The position numbers were made by a program, and so were the translations under genes. 64,000 nucleotides of DNA, taken from the NCBI GenBank assembly GCA_041649155.1, contig JBAZNP010000001.1, forward strand, positions 430,564 through 494,563, read 5' to 3'. The stretch comes from Patescibacteria group bacterium (lineage in GTDB: Bacteria; Patescibacteriota; UBA1384; XYA2-FULL-43-10; 1-14-0-10-43-13). The notes below the pieces were generated by a model that had not been told where the DNA came from, searched no databases, and saw only the letters and a program-made list of their open reading frames with translations. Positions within the stretch are counted from its first letter, which is position 1. Each line of letters begins with the position of its first letter. Of this stretch, positions 48,864-50,258 are shown in pieces.

Positions 48864-48901
48864 GATGTACTCCAAGTAGCAATTGCTATATTGCTTTATT
48901 G

Positions 48902-49282
48902 TTATATTGTTAATTTTTCGTTTGTAAATTTAATTAAATGATTAATTAATAGGGGAAGCTTCTGTAACTCGCTTAAAATATAATCATATTCTTCAATTTT
49001 AAGCAGCTTTCTTTTTATTGATTTCTCGTTCCAGTCCAAAGATTCTTTTGCTGATCCAAAACTATATCTATAAAAACAAATTTTATCTTTCTTGCCATAT
49101 CGGCCAAATCCTTCTGCGATATTTGCTGATATGGAATCTATTGCTCTAACGAATTGGTCTCCAACAGTTTTCTTGGCGAAGTAGTCCCATTCTACAACAA
49201 TATCCCACACATAATTTGATAAACCAAATGCAACTTTATATGCTTCGATATCATTCAATTGTAAATATTTTTTCTGTTCCAT
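48902..49282 (-). CDS. Four-helix-bundle protein (the family historically called 23S rRNA-intervening-sequence protein), inserted between atpD and atpG and flanked by inverted ATTGTTATATTGTTAA repeats
   Basis: 126 aa, [16 protein letters not shown]...[16 protein letters not shown] family pattern. Left flank 48876-48915 and right flank 49280-49320 carry the motif in inverted orientation. Confidence 0.55.
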
Positions 49283-49319
49283 AGCAATATATCAATTTAA
49301 CAATATAACAATTTGCGCT

Positions 49320-50258
49320 TTAGCGCATTGCTTCTGCTGCGCCTGAAATCTCGGCGATTTCATTTGTAATCGAATTCTGCCTGATTGTGTTATATGTCAG
49401 AGTTAAATCGTCAATTAAGTTGCCGGCATTGTCCGTTGCATTTTTCATTGCTACCATTCTGGATGAATGTTCGGAGGCATTTGCCTCAAGAACTGCTCCG
49501 TAAATTTGCATTCGGATGAATCGATATAATAATTTTTCCAGAATTGTGTCGGCATTCGGCTCTAATTTATATTCGGTTTGACTAGAGGGGACTGTCCTTT
49601 CTGGGGTCTGGGGACTGTCCCCGGATTCCCAAAGTTCTGGCAGGTCTATATGATCTTTTTCTAGCGGCATGACTTGTTTGACTACAGGAATCTGCTTCAG
49701 AGATGAAACAAAGTGCGAATAAATTATAACCACTTTGCTATATGTTCCGTTTAAATATTCTCCATTCGACATTTTTGATATTGGGATTATATCTTCTAAA
49801 GAAATATTATTTTCCAGTCCGTCAAAAGCGGCAATTAATTTTCCAATTTTGTAATTATTTACAAATTCGGCGCCTTTTTTACCAACGGCAATGATGTCGC
49901 AATCACCCAAAAATTCACATTTATTATCGGTAGGGCAGCACTCTGCTTTTACAAAACTTGTCAATTTTTTTAGAGCATCGGAATTATAGGCGCCACAAAG
50001 GCCTCGATCTGATGTTACAAAAATGATGGCTGTTTTGTTGGTCTCTTGCGGTCTAAGAAGGGGATGATTTTTTGGTAAGGTCAGATTGGCAAGTTTAAGA
50101 AGCATATTCCATGAATTTTGGACATAAGCTCTTGCTTCTGTGATTGATTTGATCGATTTTTGCATCTTAACAGAAGCGACCATTTCCATCGCTTTGGTGA
50201 TTTGTTTTGTGTTATTGACCGATTTTATTCGGCGTCTAAATTCTTGTGTTGATGCCAT
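49320..50258 (-). CDS. atpG: F1 ATP synthase subunit gamma, with internal in-frame direct-repeat and Cys-rich insertions
   Basis: N-terminal MASTQEFRRRIKSVNNTKQITKAMEMVA and C-terminal ITNEIAEISGAAEA. The direct repeat GGGGACTGTCC x2 at 49590-49640 encodes ESGDSPQTPERTVPS. The CCPTDNKCEFLGDC segment is atypical. Confidence 0.8.
   Translation of the reverse strand: MASTQEFRRRIKSVNNTKQITKAMEMVASVKMQKSIKSITEARAYVQNSWNMLLKLANLTLPKNHPLLRPQETNKTAIIFVTSDRGLCGAYNSDALKKLTSFVKAECCPTDNKCEFLGDCDIIAVGKKGAEFVNNYKIGKLIAAFDGLENNISLEDIIPISKMSNGEYLNGTYSKVVIIYSHFVSSLKQIPVVKQVMPLEKDHIDLPELWESGDSPQTPERTVPSSQTEYKLEPNADTILEKLLYRFIRMQIYGAVLEANASEHSSRMVAMKNATDNAGNLIDDLTLTYNTIRQNSITNEIAEISGAAEAMR

Follow-up and report, generated by a model that had tools for sequence, protein, structure and literature searches.

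An intervening-sequence-like cassette with an S23p-family gene between octamer arrays in the ATP synthase operon of a Patescibacteria bacterium

Intervening sequences (IVSs) of ribosomal RNA (rRNA) genes, found in Leptospira, Coxiella burnetii and Brucella, and the S23p proteins associated with them have been known since the early 1990s. Their function and spread are not understood, and they have been regarded as a peculiarity of rRNA genes. In Coxiella, the 23S rRNA IVS is a selfish element of 428 nt and has a 28-bp terminal stem, an S23p open reading frame (ORF) and an RNase III cut at mid-stem; it was acquired horizontally and then kept, and its S23p is reportedly unlikely to be made in vivo (PMC4990558). 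ORFs of the 23S_rRNA_IVP family are also present in rRNA insertions of the candidate phyla radiation (CPR), or Patescibacteria (PMC11270868). Here we describe a cassette in a 64,000-nt stretch of a Patescibacteria group bacterium (GenBank assembly GCA_041649155.1, contig JBAZNP010000001.1, positions 430,564 to 494,563 of the forward strand; hereafter, the window), in which a gene of this family, which we call IVP, lies between two inverted arrays of 8-nt repeats within the ATP synthase (atp) operon. The cassette is probably a member of a large, previously undescribed Patescibacteria family and an IVS-type selfish element of messenger RNA (mRNA) spacers. In the literature searched, coverage of which is incomplete, no PF05635 gene of an operon spacer is described with inverted repeat arrays on its two sides; the papers that turned up concern rRNA IVSs, Avd and heptamer repeats.

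The cassette shares with rRNA IVSs its size (431 nt, compared with 428 nt in Coxiella), a single S23p/PF05635 ORF whose Shine-Dalgarno sequence is poor or absent, and complementary termini that are predicted here to form a closing stem of about 28-30 bp around the ORF. Both also have short forms without an ORF and a sporadic distribution suggestive of horizontal spread followed by vertical maintenance. The two differ in host site, which here is a spacer between cistrons of an mRNA, and once a coding sequence, rather than an rRNA helix. The arms also differ, being tandem 8-nt arrays here and a unique inverted repeat in IVSs. RNase III excision is known for Coxiella and is only presumed for the cassette, while the protein is clearly under purifying selection here and is reported as probably not produced in Coxiella.

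A second point of comparison is Avd of the diversity-generating retroelements (DGRs). Avd is a pentamer whose five protomers all use the same residues to bind an RNA stem-loop, and the end of the avd ORF, on its 3' side, belongs to the RNA structure (bioRxiv 10.1101/2023.10.23.563531). PF05635 is the commonest DGR-associated family (PMC10053308).

Anatomy of the cassette and its protein

The cassette consists of an IVP gene fused at both ends to octamer arrays:

48882-49312, minus strand: whole cassette, 431 nt (5' octamer array, IVP ORF, 3' octamer array), as delimited in an alignment of six cassettes
49283-49312, minus strand: 5' arm, reading ATTGTTAT ATTGTTAA ATTGATAT ATTGCT on the transcribed strand, then ATG directly
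48902-49282, minus strand: IVP gene of the S23p family, a four-helix-bundle protein of 126 aa (PF05635, TIGR02436)
48882-48913, minus strand: 3' arm, reading TTAACAAT ATAACAAT AAAGCAAT ATAGCAAT on the transcribed strand

Each arm is made of four tandem 8-nt units, ATTGYTWW upstream of the gene and the reverse complement downstream. The 16-nt sequence ATTGTTATATTGTTAA forms a perfect inverted pair (48898-48913, plus strand, and 49297-49312, minus strand) and has 9 window matches with up to two mismatches, against 0.11 expected. The inverted repeat reaches 32 nt at 81% complementarity (48881-48912 / 49282-49313). The initial annotation had placed a 126-aa four-helix-bundle gene between atpG and atpD, immediately flanked by inverted copies of one terminal motif. 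The gene is confirmed by its matches to PF05635 and TIGR02436, its neighbors by Pfam, and the inversion by the exact 16-nt pair; the ends, however, are tandem octamer arrays and not single terminal repeats.

Arms and ORF interlock. The start codon overlaps the 5' array, in that the AT of the last unit's spacer supplies the first letters of the ATG, and the first 12 nt of the 3' arm code for the C-terminus of IVP (..LTI) and its stop codon. The atpG stop codon lies 7 nt from the 5' arm, and 18 nt, including a GGAG ribosome-binding site, separate the 3' arm from the atpD ATG. The IVP gene has no obvious Shine-Dalgarno sequence. Consensus matches for a promoter or terminator belonging to the cassette occur at chance level only, and there is just a weak 5-bp hairpin over the atpG stop codon.

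IVP matches PF05635 (23S_rRNA_IVP; E 2.4e-19, 69.9 bits against a cut-off of 33.8, profile positions 2-105 of 106), which is indeed the family named after 23S rRNA intervening sequences, as the initial annotation had stated, and TIGR02436, 'four helix bundle protein' (E 3.4e-20, 72.3 bits against a cut-off of 24). An identical protein, encoded on contigs of up to 0.8 Mb, is annotated in the database as 'four helix bundle protein [Patescibacteria group bacterium]'. The AlphaFold monomer model (pLDDT 93.8) places helices at residues 13-29, 34-60, 64-90 and 96-125, and a Foldseek search with it returned 2GSC (TM 0.83), 2RLD (TM 0.73) and then Avd (4DWL and 8UB7, TM about 0.7). A profile search against the PDB returned 2RLD (E 4.5e-21) and 2GSC (E 2.1e-5), both of them stand-alone S23p proteins with five chains per deposition. 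IVP would thus share with Avd a four-helix-bundle fold and, going by these closer homologues, possibly a pentameric barrel; in both, the 3' end of the ORF overlaps a structured element, the 3' arm here and the RNA fold in avd. Sequence identity to Avd is only 6-9%, and no reverse transcriptase, template repeat or variable repeat lies near the cassette. PADLOC and PHROG gave no match, and no copy of the cassette was found among IMG/VR viral contigs.

The cassette family and its arms

More than 4000 IVP homologues are present in the database. With the protein's own cluster (100% identical) and one close variant (96%) set aside, the best 120 have identities of 71-81% and lengths of 122-138 aa, and their named sources are CPR groups such as Falkowbacteria, Pacebacteria, Andersenbacteria, Parcubacteria and Minisyncoccia. 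Homologues lie in co-directional contexts such as PGK-IVP-FBA-IVP-PfkB, ABC-IVP-MacB-IVP-MacB and PrgI-IVP-TraC. We sampled 80 further metagenome loci with homologues of 59-78% identity, 78 of them with full flanks. At nearly all 80, an ATTGTT array runs into the ATG and an AACAAT array begins at the stop codon. Across the 78 loci, the density per 70 nt is 2.83 for ATTG[CT]T upstream and 2.88 for A[AG]CAAT downstream, compared with a background of about 0.08 (an enrichment of about 36-fold). At least two cores are present on each side in 57/78 loci, and the most frequent number of units per arm is four.

Six aligned cassettes from different sites resemble one another from the first ATTG unit through to the last CAAT unit and nowhere beyond, and by this measure the cassette is a discrete unit. 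Profiles of 51 outer flanks contain no target motif, and a target-site duplication appears neither there nor in the six aligned cassettes. The 140 neighboring proteins fall into 106 clusters. They are encoded co-directionally with IVP upstream in 63 of 67 loci and downstream in 59 of 65, with median gaps of 50 and 40 nt. The cassette is inherited vertically over long spans, yet in the course of evolution it has come to occupy many different operon junctions, nearly always in the sense orientation. The rRNA location of IVSs does not recur, as no rRNA was found in the window or beside 20 checked homologous loci, and no Rfam family covers the arrays. At the loci examined, IVP is the only gene found between the arms and no transposase shares these ends; neither a transposase (Pfam gene list) nor a reverse transcriptase lies within 10 kb on either side of the cassette. 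Next to the gene the only repeats are the octamer arrays, and the pairing of reverse transcriptase with template and variable repeats that marks a DGR is absent.

Single CPR contigs can hold several PF05635 subfamilies within a few kb, between co-directional genes, as in locus L086 (572-943, 4001-4381 and 5322-5672). Locus L087 has two PF05635 genes of different subfamilies (2230-2622 and 4001-4381). One of the IVP genes in L086 has long inverted flanks of its own (5254-5296 / 5678-5720; 43 nt at 84%), and other such genes have weak ones only.

Both the protein and the repeats are constrained. Between cassettes, the proportion of synonymous differences is saturated (pS 0.6-0.97) and that of nonsynonymous differences is 0.15-0.2 (pN), with third codon positions making up half of all differences. 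A pN so far below a saturated pS means that the IVP protein is made and is under purifying selection. The hexamer core of the arrays, which is non-coding, is preserved over the same divergence that saturates synonymous sites; the repeat cores are under purifying selection as well. Between the window and L176, a manual alignment count gave about one change in the aligned array and spacer bases, compared with about 7% in the flanking coding sequence. The initial annotation had read the whole as a MITE-like element (miniature inverted-repeat transposable element) carrying a cargo gene. The repeat-bounded inserted unit stands; the gene, however, is its constant core and not cargo, having stayed together with the arms at 80 or more loci despite saturated synonymous sites.

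The two arms of a locus change together. Spacer dinucleotides agree between the arms of one locus at a frequency of 0.305, compared with 0.120 +/- 0.018 across loci (maximum 0.181 in 2000 permutations). For covariation we used the 37 loci with 4+4 units, assuming fully nested pairing and comparing with 500 shuffles. Paired cells made up 84.6% against 80.1 +/- 0.7 in shuffled sets, doubly changed cells numbered 77 against 43.5 +/- 4.6, and the covariation score was 0.164 against 0.098, none of these values being reached in any shuffle (0/500 each). Sliding the registers by 1-3 nt left 25-51% paired. The alignments thus indicate that the arms keep their complementarity by compensatory or concerted changes. 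The core variant ATGGTT/AACCAT gives a further view of this process. It occupies all units of both arms at four loci that are not mutual closest relatives and arose at least three times, each time in both arms, so the two arms evolve in concert. Variant cores replacing ATTGTT in every unit of both arms occur at L141, L154, L158 and L173, and also at L163 (ATGGTT/AACCAT; GATTGTG/CACAATC).

RNA folding predictions agree with pairing between the arms. For a 451-nt transcript (48872-49322, minus strand), both the minimum free energy (MFE) and the centroid structure are predicted to pair the arrays in a closing stem of about 30 bp (z = -2.9). MFE predictions for the 78 cassettes joined the two flanks by 28 bp at the median, with at least 20 bp in 56 loci. 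With the 3' flank shuffled, the median was 5.5 bp and 12 loci had at least 20 bp; a reversed 3' flank was discarded as a control because the core is nearly symmetric. The inverted repeat, the predicted fold and the covariation together suggest complementary termini with an enclosing stem, as in rRNA IVSs.

The same genome also has gene-free units with these arms, as the initial annotation had proposed for the non-coding units elsewhere in the window. The doublet ATTGYTWWATTGYT has 30 window matches compared with 1.44 expected, all in five inverted pairs except for an isolated one-mismatch match at 15491-15504. One pair is the gene-bearing cassette, and the other four are gene-free, each with the layout ATTGYT array, loop, RCAAT array:

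52503-52609, minus strand: gene-free unit at the atpF-atpH junction, 4 + 6 units with a 21-nt loop; predicted RNA fold z = -4.7
53438-53535, minus strand: gene-free unit at the atpB-atpE junction, loop a GC-rich hairpin CCTCTCC..GGAGAGG; predicted fold z = -7.6
33657-33789, plus strand: gene-free unit between the genes for a class-V aminotransferase (cysteine desulfurase-like) and a NifU-like protein, 77-nt GC-rich loop; predicted fold z = -4.0
44571-44670, plus strand: gene-free unit in frame within miaA (43797-44816); predicted RNA fold z = -6.1

Compared with MiaA in the PDB, MiaA of the window has about 32 extra residues exactly at the gene-free unit. All four gene-free units are predicted to form strong hairpins; their loops are unrelated to one another and are often GC-rich hairpins. 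Short gene-free forms also lie beside cassettes in other genomes, so that short forms and cassette coexist, with the same arms, in the same genomes. In 598 kb of atp loci from 80 other genomes, of which 125 kb come from 16 CPR metagenome-assembled genomes (MAGs) of similar base composition, the doublet does not occur. Around cassettes of other genomes it occurs 26 times in 304 kb, compared with no occurrence in the 125 kb of CPR loci that lack this IVP. The objection that the flanking motif is just AT-rich spacer sequence therefore fails, and the symmetry is a true inversion. In these respects the core of the initial reading, a repeat-bounded inserted unit whose ends are common to non-coding units of the same genome, is supported.

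The gene-free units may parallel the long and short forms of IVSs, or an element with non-autonomous derivatives. REP (repetitive extragenic palindromic) sequences, BIMEs (bacterial interspersed mosaic elements), MITEs and Rickettsia palindromic elements are likewise hairpin-forming repeats, and those of Rickettsia can insert in frame into genes. The gene-free units resemble all of these as repeats of about 100 nt at operon junctions, and resemble the Rickettsia elements in the in-frame unit inside miaA. Their ends recur on a longer, gene-bearing form, just as those of a MITE recur on its parent insertion sequence, and they have terminal inverted repeats in the form of tandem octamer arrays. 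They differ from the elements named in these arrays, in the lack of a target-site duplication and in a long form without a recognizable transposase.

The history of the atpG-atpD junction is one of turnover. By Pfam, the minus strand of the window holds a complete F-type ATP synthase operon:

54381-54626, minus strand: atpI-like
53537-54286, minus strand: atpB
53189-53419, minus strand: atpE
52619-53101, minus strand: atpF
52100-52495, minus strand: atpH, 131 aa
50399-52030, minus strand: atpA
49320-50258, minus strand: atpG (gamma subunit), upstream neighbor of the cassette (PF00231, E 5e-86)
47496-48863, minus strand: atpD (beta subunit), downstream neighbor of the cassette, 455 aa gene call
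47005-47418, minus strand: atpC

The best atpG matches are MAGs labeled Saccharibacteria or Berkelbacteria (86, 73, 61 and 58% identity). In the closest relative of this comparison, L005 (86%), the atpG-atpD spacer is 92 nt long and holds neither a gene nor octamers, and the junction is empty in L008 and L009 as well; these are the empty sites that had been sought. L006 (atpG 73%) and L007 (61%) have at the same junction a PF05635-type gene only 25-28% identical to the window IVP, so related genomes are far from uniform here. The inverted repeats around these genes (45 nt at 73% in L006, 36 nt at 83% in L007) are each built of their own, different short units. The L006 and L007 IVPs look like orthologues from a common ancestor, because their identity (49%) tracks that of the atpG proteins (59%). 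L176, at about 94% DNA identity, has the window's cassette at the same site. In L174, whose ComM is 73% identical, comM is directly followed by an 81%-identical cassette with near-identical arrays; the window has no cassette there. This pattern means that the atpG-atpD junction was occupied, emptied and re-occupied by different family members. The insertion in the window is old and not recent, since L176 shares the site and deeper relatives already had another IVP subfamily there. Some pairs of loci have IVPs 67-75% identical beside neighbors of only 30-46% identity, and at shared sites IVP evolves at about the rate of its neighbors. This sporadic distribution suggests horizontal acquisition, as for rRNA IVSs.

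Candidate mechanisms and alternatives

We envision that the cassette, lacking a promoter of its own, is transcribed by read-through within the atp polycistron, which would account for both the sense-orientation bias and the lack of a convincing promoter. Both arrays would then pair as an RNA stem of about 30 bp around the entire ORF, start and stop codons included. By analogy with rRNA IVSs, this stem may be an RNase III substrate at which the cassette is probably excised or processed. Excision could be harmless because a break between cistrons would be tolerated like a break in rRNA helix 45. A pentameric, Avd-like IVP may bind the periodic repeats in its own cassette and in the gene-free copies, for which Avd offers a precedent that makes binding of the periodic arms by an IVP ring plausible, and this binding would protect or regulate the repeat units, or help to copy them.

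A bolder version of this model, which we think unlikely, is that the IVP pentamer and the octamer arrays form a new kind of self-propagating element, in which the ring reads the repeats of its own transcript with one protomer per unit. IVP would shield the element or recruit RNase III, a reverse transcriptase or a nuclease, leading to copying into other transcribed spacers. If so, rRNA IVSs and mRNA cassettes would share one mechanism and the S23p family would gain a first function.

Several observations weigh against the interpretation of the cassette as an IVS-type selfish element. RNase III processing and binding of the repeats by the protein are both steps that we infer. The gene-free unit in frame in miaA is hard to square with obligatory cleavage of the stem, which would destroy that mRNA. 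No empty and filled pair of near-identical sequence was found, so the insertion event itself is unseen; the L005 empty site is too diverged in its spacers to align into a clean excision or insertion junction. Two of five IVP genes of other subfamilies have only weak flanking inverted repeats. IVP is only mildly basic (isoelectric point 8.5), in which it differs from Avd. The ATGGTT variant comes with no consistent change in the protein, only one weakly discriminating column (n=3), leaving strict sequence-specific recognition unsupported. G-U wobble pairs show no preference for the sense strand (20.45 vs 20.51 over 78 loci), and in the 4+4 alignment the sense strand has more C-A mismatches than U-G pairs, so that the arms may pair in DNA, as a cruciform or hairpin, and not in RNA. 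A wobble asymmetry had been considered as a marker of RNA versus DNA, or of strand, and was dropped as an impression from the window that is not general over the 78 loci. No RNase III signature was seen in the 64-kb window, a piece too small to be informative.

A possible, though doubtful, alternative is that the cassette is a domesticated regulatory module. IVP would then be a host RNA-binding ring, similar to TRAP or Avd, that acts on tandem AUUGUU units at operon junctions and tunes the processing, stability or translation of their neighbors, and the spread over junctions would reflect a regulon instead of selfish mobility. The strong purifying selection on the protein and the retention of the hexamer core while synonymous sites are saturated would both be expected of such a system. 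About four units per arm come near the five protomers of the solved homologues, and all five Avd protomers contact the RNA stem-loop. Three atp junctions of the window have the same arrays, and the cassette has long been at the same site in several clades. A regulon is difficult to reconcile, however, with 106 neighbor families and patchy presence among relatives, with the presence of several unrelated IVP subfamilies close together in L086, each having repeats of its own, or with a unit inside the miaA coding sequence. The orthologous IVPs of L006 and L007 also have entirely different repeats.

We consider it distinctly improbable that the element acts at the DNA level, with arrays that extrude as a hairpin or cruciform and are mobilized in trans, for example by a transposase of the IS200/IS605 or RAYT type (REP-associated tyrosine transposase), and with IVP carried in the loop and RNA structure irrelevant. 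In its favor, the wobble pairs show no strand asymmetry. As in hairpin-dependent transposition, there is neither a target-site duplication nor a target consensus; the gene-free loops are unrelated, and one unit lies in frame in a gene, like Rickettsia palindromic elements. Such a transposase is nonetheless missing within 10 kb on either side of the cassette, and the gene is not interchangeable, being under selection and co-inherited with the arms across 80 loci. The sense orientation of more than 90% of cassettes points instead to dependence on host transcription.

Two further explanations have very little in their favor. That the IVP is an orphaned Avd and the repeats decayed template and variable-region structures of a DGR would suit the structural similarity to Avd (TM about 0.7) and the frequency of PF05635 around DGRs (PMC10053308), yet there is no reverse transcriptase or template/variable repeat pair within 10 kb on either side, IVP is structurally closest to 2GSC and 2RLD, stand-alone S23p proteins, rather than to Avd, and the architecture, conserved at hundreds of loci, is under selection there, making a remnant most improbable. 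Equally improbable is a coincidence in which a small unrelated gene lies between two generic intergenic repeats similar to REP or STRR (short tandemly repeated repetitive) sequences: 51 arrays of period 7-9 in 64 kb and repeats at nearly every atp junction might invite it, but the same arrays surround homologues in 57-69 of the 78 loci, in other genomes and at unrelated sites, they are absent from the 598 kb of control loci, they embed the start and stop codons, and arm enrichment, covariation and sharp cassette boundaries already contradict it.

The IVS design, an ORF within a predicted closing stem, is widespread in ordinary operons of Patescibacteria: copies number in the hundreds, their arms co-vary, and gene-free derivatives accompany them. 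The loci provide a large comparative data set for IVS-type elements and a defined candidate RNA or DNA ligand of IVP, namely (AUUGUUNN)4 / (AUUGUUAU)4 and their duplex. They would link stand-alone S23p proteins to the RNA-binding role of Avd in DGRs, and we propose a rule of tolerance by which such elements sit where a break in the RNA is harmless. The model may also bear on how polycistronic mRNAs, that of the ATP synthase included, are organized and processed in CPR bacteria with tiny genomes.

Other repeats and features of the window

Most other atp junctions hold repeats too, as had been noted at the outset, and these are of octamer, heptamer-type or palindromic kinds. Heptamer-type repeats occupy the atpE-atpF and atpH-atpA junctions, and inverted heptamer arrays the atpI-atpB junction. 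The atpA-atpG spacer (50259-50398) contains a palindromic element, ..GTCATTGC...GCAATGAC.., that is unrelated to the octamer family and has a partial second copy at 15607-15621. In L005, the same junction has an 845-nt insert (3157-4000) that holds repeats of several other types and lacks a long sense-strand ORF.

Tandem repeats of period 7-9 form 51 arrays in the 64-kb window, many directly before start codons; examples are 21335-21395 (TCAGTTAA x7.6), 54290-54389, 52040-52072 and 53122-53195. STRR and TAACTGA repeats of cyanobacteria and Beggiatoaceae are similar in having tandem 7-8-nt units right before start codons and a patchy distribution. They differ from the cassette arms, which are inverted pairs around a conserved ORF, in that they are described as direct arrays, with one inverted set only and no associated gene (PMC4679880). 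TCAGTTAA includes the reverse complement of the TAACTGA heptamer from Beggiatoaceae and cyanobacteria (PMC4679880).

Heptamer arrays also occur inside a gene. The mnmA ORF (35926-37086), an intact tRNA 2-thiouridylase ORF, contains four tandem arrays of about 4.4 copies each that are translated as repeat peptides (heptamers, over the four arrays, CAGTTGT, CAAGATA, AGAATCA and TCATAAT):

36363-36393: first mnmA heptamer array
36745-36775: second mnmA heptamer array
36884-36915: third mnmA heptamer array
36965-36995: fourth mnmA heptamer array

The ATP synthase delta subunit is unusually short throughout the lineage (127-152 aa, covering Pfam OSCP positions 47-172 only; window 52100-52495 and L005-L009). 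The idea that the window's atpH (131 aa) had been truncated by the adjoining repeat was rejected on this ground, as all relatives have 127-152 aa. The window of this CPR genome also holds a c-di-GMP-I riboswitch aptamer (40347-40441, plus strand), with an Rfam match of 44.4 bits against a gathering score of 35.

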